From Lama guanicoe (taxonomy: Eukaryota): DNA of 64,000 nucleotides. Where the stretch lies: positions 17,363 to 81,362 of the forward strand of contig MU053802.1 of NCBI GenBank assembly GCA_013239625.1. The letters run 5' to 3'. The number at the start of each line of letters is the position of its first letter. Position 1 is the stretch's first letter. Of this stretch, positions 7,601 to 62,689 are shown piece by piece. Both the position numbers and the translations under genes were made by a program. Under the pieces are notes generated by a model that searched no databases, had not been told where the DNA came from, and worked only from the letters and a program-made list of their open reading frames with translations.

Positions 7601-8619
7601 GTGCCTGCATCGCCCAGCGGATCTGTCTAGACCACGTCCTTCTGTGTGGTCACGGGGAAAGCAGAAGTGTGTGTGTGAGGCCTGGCCCATGGCCTGCTTT
7701 GTAGACCAGGGAAGGACCCGTTCCCAGGACCAGGGACCAGGGACCAGGCCACATTTGTGTGAGGTCAGCCCACTGGGCGCACTCTCCCACCCCAGAGGGC
7801 AGCAGCCACCCGAGGGACCCGACAGATCGGCCTGCCAGACCCTCTTCAGGTGAACGTTTGCCTCCTAAGGGTTCGAGCTCAGGGTCCTGAGGTGAGGAGT
7901 CAGGGGCAGACCATCCCTAGCAGAGCCCTCCTGGGAGACAGTGGTCATCTGGGACCCGCTGGATGAGAAAGGACAGTCCTGCGTCTCTCCTGGTTCCTGC
8001 CCGGGCACGGGTCAGTGTTGGCAGGCGAGGAAGGTTCCTTGTGCCATTGTGACAGAGCCCTGGCGTTCTTGCCTGACGTCCTCCACAGGGCCAGGGTGGC
8101 AGGACCCTGGCGAGGGTGCAGGGGGTGGAGCAGGTGGCCAAGTTTATGTGGTGTAAGAATGTTCTAGAACGTCTTTCAGGTTTTCCAGTTGGCTGGTTTC
8201 CATAAACTCGGGGGATCAACCTCCTGACTCAAGACACCCCCGCCTCCGCTCCTGCATCATTCCTAACCCGCACCCTAGCGGTGGTTGGTCCCAGAGGGGA
8301 GGGGCCTCCTCGAGGCTGCAAAAACAGACCAGGGCTGGTTGCCCCCTCAGCTGGCGTTTTCCGTCTGGAAGAAGACAGCGTGATGGTGATCCACCAGCTG
8401 CCACTTGTCCTCGTCTGACACGTTCTGAGTCATCCGGAAGGTGACGCAGGGCTCAGACGGGACTGCCCTGCTGTGGGATTCTGAGCATGAGGACAGAGCC
8501 CTCTCAGGCCCTGGGACAATTAGACTGGGCTCTGGGAAAGGCTGCAGGTTCACAGAACTGGGGTCTGGCCAGCAGTGGCTCGTGAACCGTGGCTGGTCTC
8601 TTCCCGATGGGGAGGTAGC

Positions 8620-9145
8620 TGGTTTCTTATTTGCTTGGTTTTGTTTTTGCCCCAGGGAAGAGCTAAGCATCTCCCTTCTGTCTTCTGCCTGTGGTGTCAC
8701 AGGGGGAAGGGCAGTGCCTCCCCCGAGGTTATGCACAGAGTTACTGAAAGGGCTTCATTTTGTACATCACGTCTTTAGCCCACCTGGATTTCCCTTTCAA
8801 ATAATAAAAATGCTATTTCAAGTGAAAACAAAACGAAACATCACCAGCCCTCGCTTAAGCCACGCGGGCAGGCACGCAAAGCCACCTTTCCTGTGGCTTC
8901 ATTGACAGGGAACACCCAGGAGAGGTAGACACCCAGAGGGGAAGAGGACTCGGGGCTGTCAGGGGCTGGGGGGCTGCGGGGGTGGCGGGGATTGCGTGAT
9001 CTGGATCCAGGGTTTACTTTGAAGAAAGGAATAGTGTGAGCCTGCATGGTAGTGATGGTAGCACGGCATCGTGAAGGCACCTAGTGCTCCTGAATTGCAC
9101 AATTTCAGAGGGACAAAGTCTATATTTTATTAAAAGAAACTTAAA
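8620..9145 (+). repeat. Local paralogous block, copy A (3' flank of the minus-strand gene; distal half is an old L1M 3' end)
   Basis: Colinear diverged similarity to 12385-12880; shared anchors 'ggaagagctaag', 'ttatgcaca', 'aaaaatgcta', 'aaagccaccttt', 'ttcattga..gggaac', 'tttactttga'. Confidence 0.85.
9126..9131 (-). terminator. Putative polyadenylation signal AATAAA overlapping the stop codon of the minus-strand gene
   Basis: Minus strand reads TTT TAA TAAAA; stop at 9132-9130, AATAAA at 9131-9126. Confidence 0.6.
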
Positions 9146-10766
9146 AAGGCAAAATAAAGGATACCATAACCGATATGAAATGAACAGAGGGAAGTGAAGA
9201 AAAACCAAACACAAACCACTTCAGGGGAATGGAAGTCAAAGTCGGGGTCGGGAGGGGATTCATGGTGGGATTTTGAAGAAGAAGGTGTTGGTGGGCGCAG
9301 AGGGGGCTCAGCCCCAGGGGCTGGTAACGCCTGAACTGGTTCTCTGTGGCCCAGCGGTCCAGCTGCAGATGCAGCATCTTCATGGCCTTCGGCAGCAGCG
9401 GGAGCGGTGGGACCTTCAGGAGCAGCGGGAGCTGCGGTACCTTCAGGAGCAGCAGGAGCTGCTGGAGGGGCAGAAGCTGCAGGATCTTCAGGAGCCGCGT
9501 TAGCTGCTGGAGCTGCAGAAGCTGCAGGAGCAGCAGGAGGGAGCTCGGGGTCTCCTACCGGATCCTGATGGTCCTGGTTTTGGTCTCTGGCATCTTCCCC
9601 TGCCCCCGCCTGCTCTGGATCTGTGACTGTTGGAAGTGGAGAGAGCTTTCAGTCTCGTGGAGGTGCTCGCTCATGCTGTGAGAGAGGAAAACTTGACCCA
9701 AGTGCCTCCCTTTCCGTGGGCCTCTTCGAGGACAGACATCTTCCCAGAGCTTTCCAGACAGCTCCCACCCAGCAAGTGCCCACAGGATGTATTTTGTGAC
9801 TGAACTCTTCTAGACAGGTGGTCTGAGGCCAATCTTTGCTCTGGTGCCAGCGGCAGCCTTTGGGGATGCCTCCCTGTGTGGCCCAGCCCTCGGCCCTCCC
9901 TCACCTAGGCACATGCACCAGCCTCGCCCTTCTCACCTTCGGGTTCGGCCTCGGTGGGCTCCTGGTCCTCCATCTGACTCCCAGGGAGGTGCTCCAGGTC
10001 AGGGCCGGGTCTGCTGAGCTGCCTGTCACCCGCGGGCCTGTCACCCCTGGCGTGACGCCTGGGCGTCTGGGGGGGAAGCCGTCGTGGTGGCGGGGACCCC
10101 TCCGTCGTGTGCAGACTCACCCGGAGCTGGTGCTGGCCCTGAGAAGCGTGCACCGGCCCCTCACTCGGGGAGGCGGCGCGGGTGTCCTCATCCAGCGGCT
10201 CCTGCAGCGTCCGGCTCTGCAATGACAGTGACCGGCAGCCGGCCGAGCCCGAAGGTCTCAGAGCCGTACCCGTTCAGGACCACGAGTGATTCTGCTCGCT
10301 CGACCGTCTGCTGCCAGATCAGACTGGGACCTCGGTCAGCTCAGGCGGCCACCCGGGAGGGAAGAGACACACAGCCAGAGGGCACGGGCTTCGACTGGGG
10401 TGGCAGGGCCCTGCCCGGCTCGCCTCAGCCCAGCCCGCCAGCTGGGACCCGGGGTGCGGACGCGACCAGCCCCCCAGGCCTCTGACCTGCTCGTGCTTGA
10501 GGCAGGCCCCCACACCCCACCATGACTGCCCACCTCCACCAGCAAGGAGAAGGGGATGTGGGGCTATACCCGGGTGGGGTCTGAGTGGTGGCCCGGCCTG
10601 GGCTGGCCTGCCCCGGGCCTCCCTGGGTTACCTTTGGGTCCCTGTGGCCAAATGGCCAGAGGCGCCTGGGGTGAGAGCTGACCCAGCGCCGGCACCGCTG
10701 GCCCAGCCCCTCACTGTGGGCCTTCCGGGGGCCGCGGCCTCGGGGTGTTGGGACGCAGCAGAACAT
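9130..10766 (-). pseudogene. Disabled three-exon gene for a Pro/Ala-rich low-complexity protein (MFCC leader exon, acidic middle exon, PAAPE-repeat exon with hydrophobic tail)
   Basis: Exon 1 10766-10632 (ATG, MFCCVPTPRGRGPRK...HPRRLWPFGHRDPK, donor AAG|GTAACC, phase 0). Exon 2 ~10354-9905 (polypyrimidine tract but no AG; donor |GTGAGG, phase 0). Exon 3 9675-9130 (acceptor tttcctctctcacag|, 182 codons). In-frame stops at 10321-19, 10276-74, 9907-05 and 9651-49. Confidence 0.72.
9385..9545 (-). repeat. Coding-type minisatellite (9/27-bp units, PAAPE/PAA repeats)
   Basis: Repeated 'cttcaggagcagc(g/a)ggagctgc' on +; minus frame reads PAAPAASAAPAANAAPEDPAASAPPAAPAAPEGTAAPAAPEGPTAPAAAEG. Confidence 0.85.
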
Positions 10767-10873
10767 GTGTGACTGAGTTGAGCTGAGTCCACCAACCGGG
10801 TGAGCTGAGTAGGGGCTTCCCGACAGAGTGGGTGCCCGGTGACCTCGGTTCTAAGTTCTGTTGGGTCCTGCTG

Positions 10874-10898
10874 CCAGGGAAGTGAGGTCACTTCCTGG
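10874..10898. promoter_or_regulatory. Dyad element GGAAGTGA-GG-TCACTTCC about 110 bp upstream of the MFCC ATG
   Basis: Perfect 8-bp inverted repeat (10878-10895) with two inverted ETS-like GGAAGT sites around a TGAGGTCA core; function is inferred only. Confidence 0.4.
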
Positions 10899-11681
10899 GG
10901 TCCCCTTCCCCAAACTTCCTCCTTCCGCAAAGCTCCCCCAGGGCCTCTCTGGGCTGCTGACTGCTCACCTCCCAGCCCATGCCATGTGCACACACAGTGA
11001 CACCAACTCGCCCCTCCTTATAGCGCTGAGGAGACCTGGATGCAGCCAGGAGCACAGCTCTGAGGACCGAGGTGGGTTTTGACCCAGCTCCTCCACTGGC
11101 AGTGCTGTCACGCTGGACAAGCCACCTGCCTCTCATTGTCTCTCCAATTCCCACATCAGCCCAGTGGGCATCATTCTGGCCCCTGCTTCCTGGAGAATCC
11201 ATCGTGTCTCCAGAGCCACAAACACCTACCACACCTGTCAGCCCCGTGTGCTGGTATCACAGGGAGCTCGTGCACAGACTCAGCAAAGGGAGGGCCCCAC
11301 AGTGGCCTGGCGGAGGGCAGGGCACACCCCACACAAGCCGGGGTCTACCCTGGGCTCTGGGGTAGGTCATCCTCCTTGCCGCCTTCTTCCAAGCTCACTG
11401 TCAGCAGGTTGAAATTAAATACAACTCTGCCATCATCCGTTCCGACATGCAACCTCCTAGGTCATTGTGTCATGTCAGATTCACTCCCAGTTTCCCATCT
11501 TGGTCTCCAGGTTGGGCTGCCCCATTGTGGCTCCCTGCTTTTTTACCTTCTGGTCACACATCCTTGTGTGATTCCCACACATTCCTGTGCAGAGTGGAGG
11601 ACACTGGGACCAGGTTCTGACATGTAGACTGACTTGTGGAAGTGTGCGTGACATCCACTCATTCCCATCTCCAGTGTTCAT

Positions 11682-11832
11682 TCTCTCTCTCTCTCTCTCT
11701 CTCTGTCTTTCAGTGCCTCTCTATCTGTCCTCTCTCTCTCTTTGTCTCTCTGTGTTTCAGTCTGCCTATCTCCTTCCTGTATGTATGTGTGTATATATTT
11801 ATGTGTATATATGTGTATTTATGTTTGTGTAT
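11682..11832. repeat. (TC)n followed by (TG/TA)n low-complexity tract
   Basis: Visible directly. Confidence 0.9.
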
Positions 11833-12384
11833 TGTTAGAACCCAGGGCAGGTCACTGATGAAAATGCTTTGATGACATACTGATTGTTTTAAATTCATGT
11901 TACTGAAGAAAAAACATCTTTGAAATTTGTGCAAGCACTTTGGTGAGGTCAGCTCTAAGGATCAGCACTGCTCGGGAAGGGATGCATCTGTGGCCATTTG
12001 ATGACTCTTGTACCCTGTTCCCCAGAGAGGAGTGTCTGTTTACTCTTCCCTCCAGGGGATCTGCTGGGGCCTCTGCCTCCTCACATTGTTTCCAGGGCTG
12101 GTTGTCACCAGGCTAAAGCCCTGCCAGTGTGATGGTGACCAGCATTGCCCCTCAGGTTGTCCGTCTGCCTGTGCCCTCACCTGAGAGTCGAGCACCTCTA
12201 ACACACAGTGGCCACCTGCACTGCTTCTCATTGGAATTGCTTGTGTGTGTACTGTTTCTTTTCAGAACACTGGGTTTCGAGAGGTTTTTAGACCTCATGG
12301 GTGTGAAACCTTTCTCTGACCTCGGGTCATGAACAATGTTTTTTCCAGGTTGTGATTTGTCTTTCCAGCTGTCTTTCTTGGTCT

Positions 12385-12880
12385 TTGTTTGTTTTTTGGT
12401 TTTATTTCCACAGGAAGAGCTAAGGATCTCCCTCTGGCTCTGGTTTCACACTTAGAATAGCCATGCCTTCCCCGAAATTATGCACATAGTTATAAAAAGT
12501 CTTCATTTAGTATGTCTCATCTATAATCCATGTGGATTTTCCTCTGAAAATACAAAAATGCTAATTCATGTAAAAACAAAAAAATTCACCCGTTTCGGCT
12601 TAAGATATGTGGGCAGAAAGAAAAAAGCCACCTTTTATTATTTCATTGATAGGGAACCTCGAGGATAGGTACAGACAAAGGGGATGAGGGCTTGTCATGG
12701 GCTGGGGGAGGGAGGACGTGGGGTGAGCTTTGGATACAAGCTTTTACTTTGAGGAAGGAAATAGTCTAAAACCAGACAGAGGTGCTGATCTCACAGCATT
12801 GTGAATGCACTTAATGCTCCTAAACTGCACAACTTAAAATGGGAAAAGGCTAAACTTAATTCTTGTAGACTTAAAGCATA
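12385..12880 (+). repeat. Local paralogous block, copy B
   Basis: Diverged colinear copy of 8620-9145; ends where an LTR fragment begins. Confidence 0.85.
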
Positions 12881-12893
12881 AAAATAGATGGTA

Positions 12894-13150
12894 CATAATA
12901 GAAAAGAACAAGTCTGACTCCATATTAGATCTCTTCCTGTGGCTTTAACCCTGTGCCCTGTTTTCTAGGCTTAGTCTTGTCTGTCTGGTAAACAGGAGAG
13001 CCCATTCTCAAGGCTCTGATCTTTAAGCAGATTAACACTTTTGCACTGATACAAGACAGCAAGTTGCCAAATAGAAAGTAGTTTGTTTTGTTAGAGGTTT
13101 TACAGGGGCACCATGACTTGACCCACGTGGACTGCTGTAGACCAAGAACA
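12894..13150 (+). mobile_element. Truncated ERV-type LTR fragment (copy 1)
   Basis: Begins 'taatagaaaagaacaagtctgactccatattagatct'; homologous to the reverse complement of 13280-13564. Strand is inferred. Confidence 0.7.
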
Positions 13151-13169
13151 TGGCCGACTAATGTCCTGG

Positions 13170-13564
13170 AGAACCATCTTCCCCAAGTCAGACTTTAGGT
13201 TCCTTTTCTACTAAAAAGGTGAGGGGCTGTGGTTGATTGTTGCAAACTTCTTAGTGCAGGAATTCTTTGTTTTTGGAATCCTTTGCAGCTGTCCATGTGG
13301 GTCAGGTTATGGTGCCCCTTTAAATCCCCCAATAAAACAAAGGTTATTCCCTATTCTGCAACTTGTTATCTTTATAGGAGTGCAAAAGTGTTCATATCCT
13401 TAAAGGTCAGAGCCTTGAGAATAGGCTCTCCTGTTTATTTCAGGCTAAATGCAACATTGTTTTACAAAAGCTGCAGAGCTAGTGAGACTAAGCCTAGAAA
13501 ACAGGGCACAGGGTAGAAGGAAAAGGAATAGATTTAGTAGTCAGATTTGTTTTTTTCTACTACA
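13170..13564 (-). mobile_element. Truncated ERV-type LTR fragment (copy 2, inverted)
   Basis: Ends '...ttctactaca' (TG terminus on minus); shares 'ccctgtgccctgttttctaggcttagtct', 'taaacaggagagcc' and 'ttctcaaggctctga' with copy 1 in opposite orientation. Confidence 0.75.
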
Positions 13565-30112: not shown

Positions 30113-32921
30113 GTACAGTCAGTAGTAATCTTGGCAGTCTTTATCCAGCACATGAGATTGTCAACTTTGTTTTTTGGTAGATGTGTAGGTAGATTTCCTT
30201 AAGAATATGGTCTGAATTTTAAATATGTGAAAATAATTCTTGTGACTAGGTAGGTGTTAAGCATGTTTGTCATAGAACGTTACAATGCTGGTTAAAGAAT
30301 GAATGAGTTAAAGTTTAATTTCATTTTGAATTTCTGTGAATTATTTGAAAAAGTCAGCTGGATTCAGCATGCATTCATTCCTCAAGTGTTCTTGAAGGAA
30401 TCTTTTCCCAGGAAACAGTGTCCTTGAAAGAGCCCCATGAAGCCTAGGAAGATGGCACTTGCTGGTTTGTCTCACTCACGCCAAAGCCTTTCCTGAGCAT
30501 GCTCTGTTGAAGCCAGGCTCTCAGTCTACACCCTGTTTCCAAGCACGTGGTGCACTGCGTACTCGGGTGGACTGTGGGCATCTTCCCACTGACTAGGGGA
30601 CATCTGACCAGGTCTAAGCATGATGGGGACTTCCATGGTCCACTACATGGAGGACTAGATTTCTTTTTTTAAACCTTCTTGCTTGCAGTATGTCAGAAAT
30701 TCTGAACAGAACATCAAAGACAAAAATTAAACCTTGAGAGCTCAACTTGGCAGGCAGAAAACACCCTAGTAGAGATCTGCAGAGACCAAGACCCTGCATG
30801 GAGCCAGGATCCAGAGCGAGGGAGCGGCAGGTGCAGAGGGAGAAGGCAGGAAATGCTGGGCACGGGGCAGCTGGGGAGGAGGGTGCAGGGACTTCTGTGA
30901 CCCCCACCGAGTGCCAGCTGCTCCTTAGGTCTGAACACCTGAGGTGAGAGGCTGGGTTAAAGTCGCCTAAGCCCCTGCCGGGTGTTTTTTCCTGTCCTGC
31001 CCTCCTGTTCCTTTCTGAGGCTGCTGCTGTCATCTGGGGATTGCTAGTGAGTTTCTGTTTGTGTGTCTTGGTTAATCAGCTTGGTTCGCTGTACGGAGCT
31101 GTTTTAAGGGTCAGGTGTGCGGCTTCATTGGGTCTGATCTGCTTTAACCCATCCAAGGAACCCTTTATACTTTCAGATCTCATGTTTCCGTTTGGTTCCT
31201 GTGTTACAGTTTTACAGGTTTCTTGATGGTCCTCATGTCTTCACCCTTTGTGTAACTTTAAACACATTTCACCCTTGATACCTGTACATTTTTAAACATA
31301 AGTTTGATTGCTGTATTAAATTTCTTATTTGCTAATTCTGACACTTGGGCCACTCATTGGTCTGCTACTGATCAGTTTTTTCTGCTGGTCATAGTCAGTT
31401 ACTGGTTCTACTTCTACACACGTCTAAACAATGTTGCTGTGTGCTGGGTGGTTTGGATAATACGCTGTGTGGTCTCTGGGCTCTGTAATGTCCTCTGGAG
31501 AACACAGAGCTGTATTTTTGCAGACAGTTCAGTGCCTGGCAGTTTTCCTCAGTCCTTGGAGCCTTGATTCTAGACTTTTTGGTGACACTTTATTTTTGTT
31601 TTGCCATCAGTCCTGGTTCCTGGTCTCTGATTCTACGGGATTTACAATGTCTTCTTAGGTTTCAGTGGAAACCTCTACATCATGACCACCATGCTCAAAC
31701 GTGGTTGGACTGGGACCTCGTGCTGTCTCCCTAGCCCTGGGCCTGCCCACAGTTCCTTTGTGCTGGGCTCAGCTTTGTGGTCAGCCAAGGAGTCGTGGGT
31801 AGTCTGCGTGTGCACTTCGTGGTCCTCCTGCACCTCTGCTTGCTCTGGCAGGCCCCTGGCTGTGGTCCAGGAGCACCGCCCCTGTCATGGCTTGCCCCGG
31901 GCCTCCCTGTGGTCAGGGTCACACCTGTCCCTGTTTTCTCCTGGGCCTGCCTTCAAATGTTTTTTAAAAATACTCTGTCCAGATTTCACAATTATTATCA
32001 GCAGAGGCTTATTCTACTGCTTCTTACTGCCAGAACTGGAACTCCTAGCTCGATCTTGTTCTGAATTACAAGCTTTTAGGATGGAGCCTGTCACTTCTGA
32101 GTTATTCAGACTTCACAGCAAAACCCTAGGATTCTGACCCTTCCTAAGCCCTGGAAGGCTCAATGATGTCTTCTGTTTCTCCTTAATTCCTTCCTCACAT
32201 GGTCAGTTTTAAAACAAACAGCGAGTCTCAGTGCTATGTGAAGTAGAGCGGATGAGCAGGGAGTTTCAGGTGGTTCAGGGAGGGAGTGAGGCGTCCAGAG
32301 GCAGGCAGTCACCAACAGCAGGCCCCAGTGATGCGTGGATTCATCAAATCATTGCAATTTGCTTCCCAACATTCTTTAGTCCCCTTATTTTTTTATACCA
32401 TGTTTAACCCCTAGAGAGGTTGTGTTACTCCTCAGTAGGTGGGGGTTGATTTGGTTGCACATGAGGTGGCTCTGTGCTGTCTGTGACCTGTCCTACAGAT
32501 GGAAGAGAGCAGGAGACTGTGGGCACAGCTTGGTCATGGGGAAGAGAGGAGTCCCCTTCTCCTGCCTCCTCGAGCCCCCACTCTGCGTTCACTCCCTCAG
32601 CTTGTTGCCACTCAGAGCTCAGATTTCAGGGCTGTGAAATTTCCTTAATGGACATTGATACTTGGCTAAATTACTAGGTATGTTCTTTGTCTGCCAAAGA
32701 AGCTTTTTAACCATCACAGTTTTCCTCTGCATTAAACTATGAAAGTTGTCTCTGTCCTTGTTAACATGCTTTTACCCATTCATCTAAAAATGCCCAGTAG
32801 GCCTGGGTATAGAAATACACTTCTGCACTGCAGTTGGCAGTGGTCGTCTGTAATTTCTGTTTTCCTAGGCTCCTTGCTCCCCGCCAACTGATGGCCCTTG
32901 GCTCCTCTCCCATTTGCCCAG

Positions 32922-33180
32922 GCCACCGCACTGGCTGTGTGTCAGCATTTGGCTGTGGAGCCCATGCATCTGGTGAGCCCCATGTGTGAAGCCTGCAGCT
33001 CCATGACTCCTGTCCCTGTGCCGCGCGTCCACCCCATCAGAGTGAAGAAGCACCAGCCATCGCCGGGTCCTGCTCTGCCTGTTGTGATCCAGCTCATGGA
33101 AATGGGATTCCCTAGAAGGAACATTGAGTTTGCACTCAATTCACCCACAGGCACTCCTGGGAACGCTGCTGGCTTGCCAG
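32922..33180 (+). pseudogene. HERC2: HERC2-like exon (UBA-like region)
   Basis: ATALAVCQHLAVE...PALPVVIQLMEMGFPRRNIEFALNS; open, AG/GT intact. Confidence 0.93.
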
Positions 33181-33324
33181 GTACTGCGTTTTCCACAGGG
33201 GTGTTCCAGCTTAAGATGCCCATCTATTTGTTCGTAGGCCTCCCGGGAAATGCGGCCGTCAGAGGCTTGTGCTCAACTGGGCATGTTGTCCTCACCACGG
33301 GGCACCATGTGTGCCTGCTCCTGG

Positions 33325-33459
33325 GCATGGAGGCCATAGTTGGGTGGCTGTTGGACAATGCTGACGCGCAGGTCATGGATCTCTAGGATGCAGACGGGGT
33401 CTGAGGAGTGTTTAGACAAGGAGGTGGTGGAGGATGTGGATGACACGGCCTATGCTGTG
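33325..33459 (+). pseudogene. HERC2: HERC2-like exon, acceptor mutated, stop and frameshift
   Basis: MEAIVGWLLDNADAQVMDL*...EVVEDVDDTAYAV; GG instead of AG at the acceptor. Confidence 0.88.
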
Positions 33460-37334: not shown

Positions 37335-38823
37335 GTCATAGTACCTAGGCAGGAAAGCGCTGGGTGTTGGCCTTTCATCAACTGATGTAAACTAGGGCAG
37401 GAAAAACAAGAATTAAGCAAACCTTATGATATAAAAATAGTGTCCTCTGCTTGTCAGTGCCCTCACGACCAGGAGCAGCCCTGCTGTTGAGGAGTCAGGT
37501 GTGTTAACTCCCTGCAACGTGGGAGAATGCACCATGGAGAAGGCGGCATCTCCATAAGTGTGTGAATGTGACAAAGTCTAATGAGTTCGCATTGAGTATT
37601 TGGGGGAGATTTCAAGGAATTGGGGTAATTCTAAGAATGGATGTGTTAATAAATATTCCCTGGAAGTGGAGGGCAACTGAGTCAGGATGAGGTCATGATG
37701 GGCAGGGAAGCAGTCGGTCATACTCGCCAGGAGGGGACTGTGGTTGGGATTCGATTGGATGTGACTGGACATGTTAGAGTGGTTTTGTTTTCATCTTGAT
37801 CTGTCACAGTCTCAGGCTGACCTTGTCTCATATTGGGGTTCTTGCTCTGTCAGTCATTCTGCCAAATGGCCAGCTCCCTCAGTGTTTTTCTATTTTTATT
37901 AATGCTGTATAAAAATTTAGGGCTGAGTTTAAGAAATGGAAATGTAGAAATGATGGGTGTTAAGACCTGGAAACACAAAATTCTCCTCAATTTATATTTA
38001 ATGTGATATTGTTGAGATTTCAAATCACATGGCATACTATGTCCATTTTAACAGTTGCAAGAAAAATAATTAAATATATGCGTAGTTTTATTTTGTCTTT
38101 GAGCTTTTTCAGTGCCATTTTTGCTTTGTTTTGTTACAGCTTTGTGGAAAGCCATCTTTCTGCCAGATAGCTTCGATTAGAAATGGCCACAGTGGTGGTA
38201 CTTCCTCAGTGGGCAGGGATGTTAGAGTTTTTTAAGTTACTTAAGAACAAATGGCTTATTTAACATTTTATTTTGGTTTAACATTTTGCTTCAGTTAAGA
38301 GATTCTTAAAAGCTTTACAAATCAAAACAAAGATAGATTTCAAAAATAACAACTTGGTTTAGAAGTTAATGTTTTCAGTAGCTTTCACCAAAGGGCAAGA
38401 GATACCTTAACATTATTAATATAATTTTTATTCCCTAAGTTACTGAATGGAGTTTTTGGTTGGTGTAATTAAAAACAAACAAATAAACCTTCAATAAATG
38501 GATAATTTCAAACAGATACAAAAGTTGAGATTATAGTATAATGAGCTTCCGTGTGCCCATTACCTGACTTGAGCAGTTGTCAGCTCCTGGCCAAACCATT
38601 CACCCATGGTCCTCTGCTTCCATTATTTTGAAGCTAATCCCTGATTGCCATCATGTGTTAGTTGACCCAGAATTATCTTAGTATGTCTCTCCCAGAGAAA
38701 AGTTCTTTTTGTACAACACAGAAAACTGTAATAAAATATCACGTGGTTAGGTATAGTTTTAATTTTAATTTTCAGTTTTTATTGGTGAAAGAGGTGTTAC
38801 AGACAATTTCTATTCTGTCCTAG

Positions 38824-38929
38824 CTGTCAGTGCCAATGGGAAAGATGTTATTGTCAACTTCCCTCAGTCTCACTGAACTGCGCTCTCATCAGACATGGAG
38901 TTGGTACCCAGTGTTCATCCTGGTATGAC
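38824..38929 (+). pseudogene. HERC2: HERC2-like exon, stop and dead donor
   Basis: VSANGKDVIVNFPQSH*TALSSDMELVPSVHPGMT; donor ATGAGT. Confidence 0.9.
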
Positions 38930-39045
38930 ATGAGTTTTTATTTTTATGTTGCTGGATTTGTTTGGGAGGAATGGCTTTCTCTGGAATCAAGTTTAACCAA
39001 GGACCTCATCTTTTTCTTATCAACCAATGGCTATTTAAAAAATAG

Positions 39046-39179
39046 GTGTGATGGCTGTGAGATGTTTCCTATCAATGGATCTCAATTCAAGTACTGTGAT
39101 GACTTTGATTTTTGTGAAATGTGTTTCAAAACTAGGAAACACAACACCAGGCATATGTTTGGCAGAACAAATGACCCAT
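39046..39179 (+). pseudogene. HERC2: HERC2-like ZZ zinc-finger exon (last HERC2 exon present)
   Basis: CDGCEMFPINGSQFKYCDDFDFCEMCFKTRKHNTRHMFGRTNDP; second CxxC collapsed by an in-frame deletion. Confidence 0.94.
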
Positions 39180-39519
39180 GTATGGTAAATGATTACGTTC
39201 TCTTTCCACAAAATTTATTAGTGAGATAATTATTGTGGAAACAAAGTTACTTAGTTTTGATCTTTAAAGCTTGTGCTTAAATGGTGAGCACTGTACTCTG
39301 TGCACAGTGAAACAGGAAAGCTGGTCCTACCCACCTGGTGAATTACTAGTTTTTTACGAGCAATGAGGGGGTCCCTGGAGCTAGAATAGTGGGGTTTGTT
39401 CACTTGTATTTCCATAGAAAAACAGTAAAAGGATCTCAAGAAACTAGTAAATATTTTCTTGGATGGGATGTGGAATTGGAGAGATGGAGAGGGAGTCTTT
39501 TTATTTGTGTGTCTTTTAT

Positions 39520-43605: not shown

Positions 43606-44487
43606 AACAAACAGGTATTCTGGGCCAGTGTTGGTTGACCAGGGTTTTATGCTTTGCCTTCTGGCTTTAGTTTGTGATTGAAAGTTTTGTTGATTGTAAG
43701 AAGAAAAGTCTTTCTCTTTTCTTAAGGAAAAAGTAACTCTTGTTAGTTAGCTAGCAAGTACTTTTGTGGACCAGAATGTTAATTTTCCATGTCTACCATG
43801 AAAAATCATGACCCTGGTCTCAGCCTACCTGCAAAATAGTTATTGATTGTTCATTTTGTGGCAGGCTTGCCTGGTCTAGGTTCTCTTGGGACTTTGTAAG
43901 AAGCATCCAGAGGAATACAGCAGCCTGTGAATTTATTTCCATGTATTGTGTGCTCAGCCTTTAATGACCTGTATCAGTGGCAAGCATCATTAGAACAAAT
44001 TTCTCACCTGCTTTGGAGGATGCTAGGGAGATTGATTGCTGTACACAACAAACAGGTATTCTGGGCCAGTGTTGGTTGACCAGGGTTTTATGCTTTGCCT
44101 TCTGGCTTTAGTTTGTGATTGAAAGTTTTGTTGATTGTAAGAAGAAAAGTCTTTCTCTTTTCTTAAGGAAAAAGTAACTCTTGTTAGTTAGCTAGCAAGT
44201 ACTTTTGTGGACCAGAATGTTAATTTTCCATGTCTACCATGAAAAATCATGACCCTGGTCTCAGCCTACCTGCAAAATAGTTATTGATTGTTCATTTTGT
44301 GGCAGGCTTGCCTGGTCTAGGTTCTCTTGGGACTTTGTAAGAAGCATCCAGAGGAATACAGCAGCCTGTGAATTTATTTCCATGTATTGTGTGCTCAGCC
44401 TTTAATGACCTGTATCAGTGGCAAGCATCATTAGAACAAATTTCTCACCTGCTTTGGAGGATGCTAGGGAGATTGATTGCTGTACAC
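43606..44487. repeat. 441-bp direct tandem duplication
   Basis: 43606-44046 and 44047-44487; no mismatch seen by eye. Confidence 0.97.
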
Positions 44488-58316: not shown

Positions 58317-61158
58317 ATGACCAACTCGCCGAGGCAACCCCCTTTGCTGATGTGCCACCTCCGCCTCTGCCTTCAACCTCTTCCCCTGACCTCACCATGC
58401 CCGCTCCCAGGAGCAGGCTGACTTCAAAGGCTTGAGTCCAGCAAACTTGGGGGAGCGGAGGCCGCCCCCTGGCAAGGCAGCTAGGGACATGAAAGAAAAT
58501 CCTCTGGCTGGCCAGGGGCACCCTATTCCCCTGTAGCCAGTGCCGAACCACGTCCCCAGTGGCACCCCGCCTCTAGTGTGTCTGTCTGTCTGCCTGCCTG
58601 CCTGCCTATCTATTGGAGGATGGGAGAAGCTAGTCTATGTGTGTGACTGTCTGTTTATCCAATGGAGGAGGAGGTGACTAGTATGTCTCTCTACTTGCCT
58701 GCCTATCTATGTATCTATCTATGTATCTATCTATTTATGTATTATCTATCTATTATCTTTCTATCTATATATCTGTCTATTTAGGGGAGGCATAGCAGTA
58801 GGCTAGTGTGTCATTTATTTGTCTGTTGGAGGAGGAGGTTAGTGTGTCTATATAACTACCTACTTGAGGAAGAGGAGGAGGCTAGTGTGTGTGTGTGCGT
58901 GTGCTGGTCTATCTATGTATCTGTATCTAGTGAGGGAGGAGGATACTGTATCTATCAGCCTATGTATACATCAAATGGAAGAAGAGTAGGCTAGTATGTC
59001 TGTCTGTCTATCTATCAGATATCAATATATGTATGTACTTATATGTAATCGAGAAGAAGGAGGAGGCTAGAGTGTCTATCTCTCTGTCAGAGGAGGAGAC
59101 TAGTGTGTCTGTCTCTCTGTGTGTCTGAGAGTTGTGTCTATCTATATCTAATGGAGAAGGAGGATTCCCATGTGTCTGGCTATCTGTCTGTTTCTAACAG
59201 GAGAAGGTAGAGGCTAGTGTGTGTATCCATCAATCTCACTTTCTATCTAATGGAGGAGGAGAAAGTCTATTAAGTTTGTCTATTATCTAATGGAGGAGAA
59301 GATTAGTGTGTCTCTCTACCTACTTAATTGAGGAGTAGGAGGAGGCATGTGTGTGTGTGTGTGTGTGTGTGTCTGTCTGTCTGCCTATGTATGTATCTGT
59401 CTACCTATATAATGGATGAGGAGGAGGAAGTTAGGATATATGGTTGTTTGTAAATGGAGGAAGAGGCTAGTGTGTCTGTCTGTCTATTTATTTGTCTCTC
59501 TGTCTGTCTAATGGAGGAAGCCTCCCAATATTCGACCCACCTGGAGGGATGCCAATTGCCACCCTGAAGCAGCAGAGGGCGCCCCCTTTGGAGGCTGAGG
59601 GGGACACTGGATGGAAATCTACAGGCTTGCCTGGGCAGCCCATGCCTCCCGCTTCCACCCTCTCTGTAGCTGCCACCGCCCCGCCCCCGCCCCGCCCCCT
59701 GACCACCCCGCACCCGCCTTCCTGGGAGCCTGAAAACACAGAAGTGTGCACCTCGTGTACCTAGGGTAGCAGAGACCAAACCTAGGACTGGCCAAGGGGG
59801 AGATCTGAGCAAATACACGGGCTCGGTGGGGCAGCCCCGCCTCCTCAATGCAGCCTCTGATCGCACCGTGCCTGCCTCCGGGGCGCAGGCTGATATGGAA
59901 ACATGCATACTGTGAACCTGGGGCAGGAGAGGCCGCACTCAGGCCAAGCCCTTGTGGAGATGGGAGCAAACTGATCGGCTCACCCGAGGCAGTCTGCTCC
60001 CGGCGACATCCCTGTACCCTGAGCTCACCTCGACAGCCTCCCAGGACCTGGCTGACAAGGAGAATTAAATCCCACACACCTGGGGTAGCAGAGGCCACCC
60101 GGGGGCCAGGAGAGGGGGAGATGGTGGGAAAATGGCCGACTCGCTGAGGCATCCCCCTTAGCTGCTGTGCCGCCTCCGTATCTGCCGCTGACCTCTTCCC
60201 CTGCCCTTACCATGCCTGATACTAGGAGCAGACTAGCTTCAAAGGCTTGAGTTCATTGAATTTGGGAGAGCGGAGGCCGCCCCCAGGCAAGGCAGTCAGG
60301 GACATGGGATAAAATCCTATGTCTCGCCAGTGGCACTCCTGTCCCCGGTCGCCTCTGCTGAACCCCGTCCCCAGACCGCACCCTGCCTCTAGTGTGTCTG
60401 TCTAACTGCCTGCCTGAATGCCTATCTATTGGAGGATGGGAGAGGCTAGTCTATGTGTGTGTCTGTTTATCGAACAGAGGAGGAGGTGACTAGTATGTCT
60501 CTCTATTTGCCTGCCTATCTACCTATCTTTCTATCTACCTATCAACCTATCTATCTATCTAGAGGAGGCATACCAGTAGGCTAGTGTGTCTTTTTCTTTG
60601 TCTGTCTATTGGAGGAGGAGGTTAGTGTGTCTATCTACATATGTACCTATTTGAGGAAGAGGAGGAGGCTAGAGTGTGTGTGTGTGTGTGTGCAGGTCTG
60701 TCAATCAATGTATCTGTAACTAAAGGGGGAGCAGGCTACTGTGTCTGTCTATCAGTCTATGTGTGCATCTAATGGAGGAGGAGTAAGCTGGTATGTCTCT
60801 CTGTCTGTCTATGTATCAAATATCTATATATGTACCTATATCTAATCGAAAAGAAGAAGGCTAGAGTATCTATCTCTCTGTCTGTCAGAGGAGGGGAAGA
60901 CTAGTGTGTCTGTCTCTCTGTGTGTCTGTGAGTCTGCCTCTATTATTTTCCAATGGAGAAGAAGGATTCCAATGTGTCTGGCTACCTGTCTGTCTCTATA
61001 CAACAGAAGGTAGAGGCTAGTGTGTGTATCAGTCAATCTCACTGACTATCTATCTAATGGAGGAGGAGAAAGAGTCTATTAAGTTTGTCTATCTATTATC
61101 TAATGGAGGAAGAGATTAGTGTGTCTCTTTACCTACTTAATTGAGGAGTAGGAGGGGG

Positions 61159-61192
<34 letters not shown>

Positions 61193-62320
61193 TCTATGTA
61201 TGTATCTGTCTACCTATATAATGGATGAGGAGGAGGAGGTTAGGATATATGGCTGTAAATGGAGGAAGAGGCTAGTGTGTCTGTCTATTTATTTGTCTCT
61301 CTGTGTCTCTAATGGAGGAAGCCTCCCAGTACTCAACCCACCTGGAGGGATGCCAATTGCCACCCTGAAGCAGCAGAGTGCGCCCCCATTGCAGGCTGAG
61401 GGGGACACTGAATGGAAATCCACAGGCTTGCCTGAGCAGGCCACTCCACCCCCGCTTCCGCCCTCTCTGTAGTCGCCCCGTCCCCGCCCCCACCACACCA
61501 CCTGACCACCCTGCGCCCGTCTCCCGGGAGCCGGAAGACACAGAGATGTGCACCTCGTGTACCCAAAGTAGCAGAGACCCACCCCAGGACAGGCCAAGGA
61601 GGAGATGGGAGCAAATACACCGGTTCCGTGGGGCAACCCGGGCTCATCACTGCAGCCCCTGTTCGCAACGCGTCTGCCTCCAGGGTGCAGGCTGACATGG
61701 AAACATGCACACTGTGAACCTGGGGCAGGAGAGGCCACACTCAGGACAGGGCCTTGTGGAGATGGGAGCAAACTGATCGTCTCACCCAAGGCAGTCCGCT
61801 TCCCGCGACATCCCTGTCCCCTGAACTCACCTCACCAGCATCCGCGGACCTTGCTGACAAGGAGACTGTAACCCAGCAAACATGGGGTAGCAGATGCCGC
61901 CCCGAGGCCAGGAGAGGGGGAGATGGTGGGAAAATGACTAACTCGCCGAGGCATACCCTTTTGCTGCTGTGTCGCCTCCACCTCTGCTGCCGACCTCTTC
62001 CCCTGACCTCACCACGCGCGCTCCCAGGAGCAGGCTGACTTCAAAGGCTTGAGTTCAGTGAACTTGGGGGAGCGGATGCCACCCCCAGGCAAGGCAGGTA
62101 GGGACATGGGAGAAAATCCTCTGGCTCTCGAGGGGCACCGTAGTCCCCGGTCGCCGCCGTCGAACCCCTTCCCCAGACCGCACCACGCCTCTAGTTTGTC
62201 TGTCTGTCTGACTACCTGCCCTACTGCCTACTGATTGGAGGATGGGAGAGGCTAGTCTGTGTGTCTGTCGTTTTACCTAATGGAGGAGGAGCCGACTAGT
62301 ATGTCTCTGTATTTGCCTGC

Positions 62321-62388
<68 letters not shown>

Positions 62389-62430
62389 GTATCTATCAAT
62401 CTATCTATCTAGTGGAGGCATAGCAGTAGC
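58317..62430. repeat. ~1.8-kb macrosatellite, about 2.3 diverged units
   Basis: Anchor 'c(c/t)(a/g)actcgc(c/t)gaggca' at 58321, 60136 and 61938 (periods 1815 and 1802 bp); each unit has a GC-rich half and a TCTA/TG/GGAGGA-rich half. Confidence 0.95.
62320..62411. repeat. (TCTA)n tetranucleotide microsatellite
   Basis: Long near-perfect CTAT run, longer and purer than the equivalent sites in the other two units. Confidence 0.95.
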
Positions 62431-62689
62431 CAAGTTTGACTTTTTATTTGTCTGATCCATCCTCTGTCCATTTATCCATCTACCATCCACCCATCCGTCT
62501 ACATTTTCAGCTGGCCCAGCAGGCCCCCACCCACCCTCTATCCGTCTCCCCACCCAGCCGTCTGGCAACCTGTTCCTGTGTCCGTCCCGCAATCATCTGT
62601 TCCAGCAAGAGCCTGATGCTCTGGGGCAGCCTAGTCCCCGGCCCCCTGCTCCTGAGGTGCCAGTTCCACCACACTACACCCCTAGGGTC

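Follow-up and report, generated by a model that had tools for sequence, protein, structure and literature searches.

NPIP, GOLGA8 and TBC1D3 are core-duplicon genes of primates. RALGDS figures among the copy-number-variable genes of the pig in the available part of the study concerned (PMC3716681), and the available part of another paper describes an elephant RGL-like paralogue without GEF domain (PMC7806701); as far as that portion of the text goes, the elephant paralogue is the nearest published case to the family described below. In the alpaca, VpaSat05-8550 is a satellite whose monomer is treated as satellite DNA, and the sections available of the paper reporting it contain no mention of RALGDS (PMC13751797). 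Two further reports, also available in part, concern protein features: GAP-43 is palmitoylated at an MLCC motif placed like that of the leader analysed here, with basic residues behind it (PMC2063950), and membrane helices have been argued to come from T-rich DNA in yeast (PMC7005711). A search outside subscription journals and bioRxiv supplements found no published study of the family or of its leader.

We analysed a 64,000-nt stretch of guanaco DNA, hereafter the window, whose coordinates are used throughout. It contains a three-exon gene that is an intact copy of an amplified camelid family.

Results

Structure and splicing of the gene

When the structure of an alpaca gene model is mapped on the window, three exons fall on the minus strand, at 10766-10632, 10216-9937 and 9626-9130:

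10632 to 10766, minus strand: coding part of exon 1, 135 nt, with a GT donor, encoding the 45-aa leader
10217 to 10631, minus strand: intron 1, 415 nt, GT-AG; alignable in its 3' part to the RALGDS intron that precedes the exon starting with SPTQE
9937 to 10216, minus strand: exon 2, 280 nt, the same exon being used in alpaca models
9627 to 9936, minus strand: intron 2, 310 nt, GT-AG
9130 to 9626, minus strand: exon 3, 497 nt, with a Pro/Ala/Glu-rich linker, a hydrophobic tail and TAA
9126 to 9131, minus strand: candidate poly(A) signal AATAAA, overlapping the stop codon TAA

Joined at these alpaca-type boundaries (phases 0 and 1), the exons give an open reading frame of 912 nt, or 303 aa, with 0 internal stops. 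Both introns (415 and 310 nt) are GT-AG, and the protein is 87.6% identical to alpaca model P0012 across its full length of 303 aa.

A first-pass annotation had recognised the pieces of this gene. The ATG exon (10766-10632, 135 nt with GT donor) and the acidic middle segment are present on the minus strand, as is the Pro/Ala repeat frame with its hydrophobic end, a 172-aa open frame without ATG (9648-9130); the AATAAA on the stop lies at 9131-9126 and overlaps the TAA. The 377 codons into which it had joined them, with stops at codons 57, 72, 195 and 204, are reproduced exactly, but the splice sites were wrong: boundaries had been set at 10354, 9905 and 9675, whereas the true introns are 10631-10217 and 9936-9627. 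Consequently the four stops held to disable the copy, at 10321, 10276, 9907 and 9651, are all intronic. The AG said to have been lost from an acceptor near 10355 is absent from the 12/12 commonest sequence classes at that place.

Eight sequencing runs were compared with the window, one of which (X24) yielded no reads. Contigs of X4 and X1, two RNA runs from two studies, contain the joints 10216|10632 (skip of 415 nt) and 9626|9937 (skip of 310 nt); with their CT..AC ends, these joints correspond exactly to the two introns. The junctions predicted by the first-pass annotation, 10632 to 10354 and 9905 to 9675, are not among the RNA joints listed. Neither of the two observed joints is among those listed for runs X6, X2, X10 and X11 or for the deep, unlabelled and probably genomic run X15. 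The RNA contigs are mostly less than 95% identical to the window, so the splicing seen is that of relatives and not of the window copy. A processed copy as the source of the RNA joints was considered and rejected: no intronless full-length match to the P0012 query was found among the 127 of 5,695 candidates scored, and none in X15. Together, at least 100 leader matches in the genome, 87.6% identity to P0012 and exact RNA joints at both introns establish that the gene is not a chance arrangement.

A different joint, 9119|9675, occurs in one contig of run X11; this 555-nt skip has no GT-AG ends and deletes all of exon 3, and it probably belongs to a deleted paralogue. Summed contig depth in X15 ranges from 2,000 to 60,000, which is not a copy number but hints at very many copies.

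Descent from RALGDS

Locus L036, which has both REM and CDC25 exons, is taken here, from its translated exons, to be RALGDS itself. Two colinear blocks connect it with the gene, window 10487-10115 aligning to L036 2697-3081 and window 10022-9744 to L036 5758-6024, at 61-62% identity (E 3e-17 and 3e-14) and with splice sites in common. Intron 1 has 61% DNA identity to L036, and its GT and AG are found in 65/70 and 66/70 aligned copies. Colinear blocks were also found to L032, a locus with REM exons only.

Relative to L036, the window gene lacks about 2.6 kb that contained the REM exons. Exon 2 is accordingly composite: a RALGDS exon (10216-10121) continues past its former donor at 10120 and, across the deletion joint, into the 3' end of what was the final REM exon (about 10022-9937). 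In exon 3, the first ~30 nt correspond by alignment to a Pro/Ala linker exon present in L032 and L036. Judging from the alignment to these two loci, the ancestral acceptor of intron 2 is apparently the one chosen in the first-pass annotation (9676/9675); in the RNA joints, an AG lying ~50 nt downstream is used, with the ancestral frame kept. These RALGDS-derived, colinear downstream exons imply that the gene arose via internal deletion and 3' truncation. They contradict the proposal of a mobile leader module placed on unrelated exons, since exon 2, intron 2 and the start of exon 3 derive from RALGDS and are colinear with the leader in REM-only paralogues.

Neither the REM exons nor the three CDC25 exons of L036 have a match in the window, and RasGEF is not among the matches listed on the contig. 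The earlier remark that no RasGEF exons follow the leader was thus correct, no RasGEF domain being encoded, and at E<=1 Pfam returned no family for four alpaca homologues and two window exons. The product of the window gene cannot act as a Ral exchange factor.

The genome also holds a second, multi-copy REM-only family, nine loci of which were fetched (L032, L033 and L037-L043). Its leader is related, its promoter palindrome is the same, and it has REM exons, a short linker exon and an early stop; no CDC25 exon was found within the stretches fetched. The existence of this family points to an order of events: a RALGDS duplicate with leader likely lost its catalytic half first, and REM afterwards. 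Over 2.75 kb, a possible origin of the leader as an exonised RALGDS intron scored 142, shuffled sequences reaching up to 133.

Leader and promoter element

The leader has 45 aa, with Cys3-Cys4, 11 K/R against 2 D/E (net charge about +9) and a predicted amphipathic helix, which a structure model of an alpaca homologue places at residues 13-31 with low confidence. A profile search among 1.84 billion representatives gave 42 matches, of which 20 were looked up by name. The leader heads NCBI-named RALGDS-like models in horse and donkey, a RasGEF protein in rabbit, and proteins of armadillo, tamandua, deer and bat, which bears out the suggestion in the first-pass annotation that it resembled a RALGDS-like first exon; in the guanaco genome it is also found directly upstream of REM exons. 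In the bat protein P0037 it is fused to a PACS-type C2 domain. Over the leader, identity to RALGDS-like models is 44-73%, and the window protein is 41% identical to the horse protein over 83 aa. Two or three Cys lie within the first six residues in 13/14 leaders examined; all 14 are basic, with a helical moment of 0.66-0.99. A word-based search with the leader of the REM-only family gave no match, whereas the profile search did recover relatives; the ESM Atlas gave no usable match.

Models P0025, P0036 and P0097 contain tandem repeats of the leader, alone or together with the second exon: about 5 times in a bat protein, in 13 matched stretches in an unnamed protein and twice in deer.

One candidate promoter element lies upstream of the gene:

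10878 to 10895, no strand assigned: palindromic pair of GGAA sites, candidate promoter element, about 130 nt upstream of the ATG

These GGAA sites, which we take to be ETS-type, form the sole such palindrome in the 64-kb window. A perfect pair is present in 39/74 copies and in 4/9 REM-only paralogue loci searched.

Exon 3 ends in an antisense LINE-1

Exon 3 and its surroundings contain the following features:

9386 to 9539, minus strand: coding minisatellite giving the PAAPE repeats, with periods of 9, 27 and 45 nt
9133 to 9219, minus strand: hydrophobic tail, 29 codons, 28% Phe, coding DNA 56% T, predicted membrane helix
8618 to 9186, plus strand: 3' end of an old LINE-1 that runs antisense to the gene and starts beneath its tail and stop codon
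12347 to 12911, plus strand: upstream twin of the LINE-1 block, 67% identical, marking the ~3.7-kb repeat unit that carries the gene

The block running from about 9186 downward was identified through its 67% twin 3.7 kb upstream. A 26-mer of this twin had 209 genomic matches, against 0 for a control, and the block profile matched at 18/18 of these sites chosen on large contigs as probable non-family loci, none of which has the gene body. At one such match (L149), the C-terminus of LINE-1 ORF2p adjoins the block on the opposite strand (E 7e-7), and another ORF2p piece was found in L146. Since the block is a LINE-1 3' end, the stop codon, the AATAAA and the 56% T tail are located at the 3' end of an antisense LINE-1. 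From this position, we infer that the T-rich tail DNA is a decayed LINE-1 poly(A). The T-rich DNA yields hydrophobic peptides in all three frames, and the tail can therefore exist without selection.

The best Kyte-Doolittle 19-mer of the tail scores 1.61 in the window, a marginal value and the weakest of the seven intact copies; the others score 1.97-2.64, the highest value, 2.64, being found in subfamily B. A single hydrophobic helix is predicted within the last 30 residues, as in tail-anchored proteins. In the structure model of P0012, everything is disordered (pLDDT 49.9, pTM 0.18) except for a helix at 283-312 (pLDDT 85-95). The tail is present at the end of 8/20 alpaca models and missing from 12/20.

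Copy number, arrays and satellite

The inference of an amplified, uncharacterised family proved right, with at least 100 leader matches in the guanaco genome and 20 distinct alpaca proteins. Among fetched loci, 86 copies were anchored and 74 were complete. Paralogues with an uninterrupted spliced ORF exist, in 6/74 of these other complete copies; with the window, 7/75 are intact. For tree and rate counts, 5 copies with partial or doubtful exons were excluded (74 to 69), which with the window makes 70 sequences. The intact copies, whose lengths of 268 to 435 aa vary mainly through the PAAPE minisatellite, fall into two subfamilies, A and B, of a single clade; next to it, broken copies form a star-like burst.

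The core common to the copies corresponds to window 8,600-12,900 in most fetched loci, others lying in longer shared duplications. Tandem copies, with exon 3 repeated, occur in L020 (spacing 3,788 nt) and L017 (4,019 nt); the window copy is single and not in an array. The first 400 nt of VpaSat05-8550, all that was visible of it, read like the reverse of the end of exon 3. One 24-mer of the available VpaSat05-8550 consensus matches exon 3 in 50/131 loci and is exact in two intact subfamily-B copies and L112. The forward primers VpaSat01, 03, 05 and 10 have no match in the 131 loci at up to 2 mismatches.

In exon 3 of another copy (L027, G000:C8912), the sole stop is within a short piece that duplicates some of exon 2. 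Alpaca model P0005, which is nearly identical, is open at that site, and the lesion may be recent or an assembly error.

Several other features of the window were noted. Degenerate UBA-like and ZZ zinc-finger pieces, both below the Pfam cut-off, lie at 32892-33386 and 38789-39229 (plus strand). They read, presumably, like HERC2 exons, and may be a duplicated HERC2 fragment 22-28 kb from the gene; in humans, HERC2 fragments sit beside GOLGA8 duplicons. An exact tandem duplication of 441 nt, 100% identical and possibly an assembly artefact, occupies 43606-44487. Two LTR-like pieces in opposite orientation, 71% identical, are found at 12896-13562, and the REM-only locus L032 has similar DNA about 2.6 kb upstream of its leader. 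A satellite-like ~1.8-kb repeat (83% identity) with CTAT microsatellites covers 58317-62454.

Selection and frame retention

Pairwise pN/pS was about 1.0 in three disjoint intact pairs, versus 1.29 in 20 broken pairs (p 0.09). A value near 1 gives no protein-wide purifying signal; it is usual for disordered chains and also expected of neutral DNA. Indels in exons 1 and 2 among the 6 intact copies are all of 3 or 9 nt, those in introns being mostly not multiples of three; in broken copies, the same exons have 28 frame-breaking versus 4 in-frame indels over 20 pairs. For the tree of the six intact copies, which were chosen after the fact, 16 lesions are expected under neutrality. For the 14 copies of subfamilies A and B, about 27 lesions are predicted at the neutral rate versus ~10-11 counted, all of them on tips or in one small subclade. 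Exons of A and B are 20% apart with the frame kept in both, and the stem (intron length 0.07) carries 0 lesions versus ~4 expected.

Replacement counts were also compared region by region. In the leader, N:S was 22:16 in the three disjoint intact pairs versus 234:75 in broken pairs (p 0.03, one of three tests, a value that would not survive correction). Exon 2 has no fewer replacements than in broken copies, and the tail gives no purifying signal (24:6 versus 93:34, p 0.5). Concerted evolution of the arrays could mimic frame retention. On balance we think it probable that the frame has been kept by selection and that the protein is made.

Discussion

The exon structure, the open frame, the descent, the splicing of family members and the position of the LINE-1 under the tail are practically certain. 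For the product, the reading that we prefer, with a probability of about 0.55, is that of an intact camelid family member derived from a RALGDS-like duplicate, with a likely disordered 303-aa spacer, a C-terminal membrane helix, and an acylated basic N-terminus on a second membrane surface. The duplicate became the three-exon gene by losing both GEF parts. Its disordered acidic chain would be fixed in a membrane by the C-terminal helix, the acylated basic N-terminus would bind a second membrane surface, head and tail both facing the cytosol, and the spacer would span between the membranes with a reach set by the PAAPE minisatellite. This two-anchor arrangement, suggested in the first-pass annotation, is compatible with the sequence. 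Its separate components, namely a tail-anchor topology with the rest cytosolic, S-acylation at Cys3/Cys4 and a function as spacer or tether whose reach depends on the minisatellite, are predictions that we put forward tentatively. A wider scheme is more doubtful: the MFSCC leader may be a membrane-targeting module that has gone unrecognised in placental mammals, and a RALGDS duplicate may have lost its enzyme and been closed by the T-rich end of a retroelement, separately in camelids and in bats or once in an ancestor of both, giving a new class of two-anchor membrane spacers with length tuned by a coding minisatellite and dosage by satellite-like arrays.

Part of the data would also suit a gene that does nothing. 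It might be a transcribed and spliced passenger of a segmental-duplication core and macrosatellite, with an ORF that survives recent array turnover and a protein that, if made, is functionless. The pN/pS of about 1, the broken state of 68/74 copies (most with splice sites and promoter motif still present) and the location of the family in satellite-like arrays agree with this, and a 9-nt base unit makes repeat expansions in-frame by itself. We regard such a passenger as unlikely, because both subfamilies are in frame despite 20% exon divergence, the stem is lesion-free when ~4 lesions are expected, non-repeat exon indels are all 3n, and the leader is conserved across placentals. Alternatively, the protein could be made with its Arg-rich amphipathic leader acting as an organelle-targeting signal, a mitochondrial presequence or a nucleolar one, and not as an acylated anchor, the tail being optional. 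High positive charge, few acids and a high helical moment also fit mitochondrial presequences, and the homologues have a net charge of about +9, few acids and a helical moment of 0.7-1.0; the tail is missing from 12/20 alpaca models, and REM-only, GEF-bearing and C2-bearing proteins begin with the leader as well. What makes targeting to an organelle improbable is the presence of 2-3 early Cys in 13/14 leaders, as in acylated N-termini (PMC2063950, in its available part), which would be needless in a cleaved presequence.

As to a disabled 377-codon gene, in which a mobile promoter-leader module is joined to unrelated exons, that model can be drawn, its GT at 9904 and AG at 9677-76 being common in the copies, and one bat gene does have the leader on a foreign domain. 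Yet its stops are intronic and common among copies (the TGA at 10321 in 65/70 aligned, the TAG at 9907 in 55/70), its downstream exons derive from RALGDS, and no RNA joint at its sites is among those listed, so that we give it almost no credence. On the preferred reading, of an intact RALGDS-derived gene, the locus moves from pseudogene to one of few intact copies (7/75), and an origin is supplied for dozens of 'uncharacterised' camelid models. The results suggest that a spliced gene resides in an already published alpaca satellite, and they provide a traceable mammalian case of a membrane helix out of T-rich DNA. The leader is common to many amplified RALGDS-like models and appears unstudied in searchable papers.

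Comparison with known systems

The leader search recovered 7 alpaca clusters, with 20 distinct proteins on 7 contigs, named 'uncharacterized protein' or 'Skin secretory protein xP2-like'. Alpaca RefSeq models XP_072816812, XP_072796879 and XP_072807712 have the same three exons at 72-88% identity, and the window locus is a member of their family, as is Camelus ferus XP_032326716, named 'predicted GPI-anchored protein 58'. The xP2-like and GPI-anchored names appear to derive from composition, and the entries state neither an origin nor a function. Xenopus xP2/APEG proteins have a signal peptide and a trefoil (P) domain, whereas the window gene has no Pfam match and its sole hydrophobic 19-mer is C-terminal.

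GAP-43 has an acidic Ala/Pro/Glu-rich chain after its N-terminus and, to our knowledge, no C-terminal membrane helix. Its Cys3-Cys4 followed by basic residues (MLCCMRR, in the available part of PMC2063950) is like the window leader, a comparison of possible working only, as there is no sequence family match and no Neuromodulin/IQ domain in the window family (Pfam, E<=1). As in the primate core duplicons, a short core is common to dispersed duplications.

Bat proteins of Eptesicus (XP_054583337, XP_054583618) and Molossus (KAF6433872) resemble the window family in having the leader, a read-through second exon, no REM, a P/A/E linker and a hydrophobic C-terminus. They differ in that identity is about 30% and the deletion joint does not look the same; one of the proteins has a tail of borderline similarity (shuffle p 0-0.05), and in the other two the tail is not similar. 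On sequence grounds, the likeness between bats and camelids may reflect common descent or convergence. With the RALGDS-like models that begin with the MFSCC leader, the window family has in common the leader exon (45-46 aa, Cys/Arg/Trp), the second exon, the promoter palindrome and the multi-copy state. These models keep REM (horse, camelid) or CDC25 (rabbit), whereas the window family lacks both and has gained a minisatellite linker and a tail derived from LINE-1.
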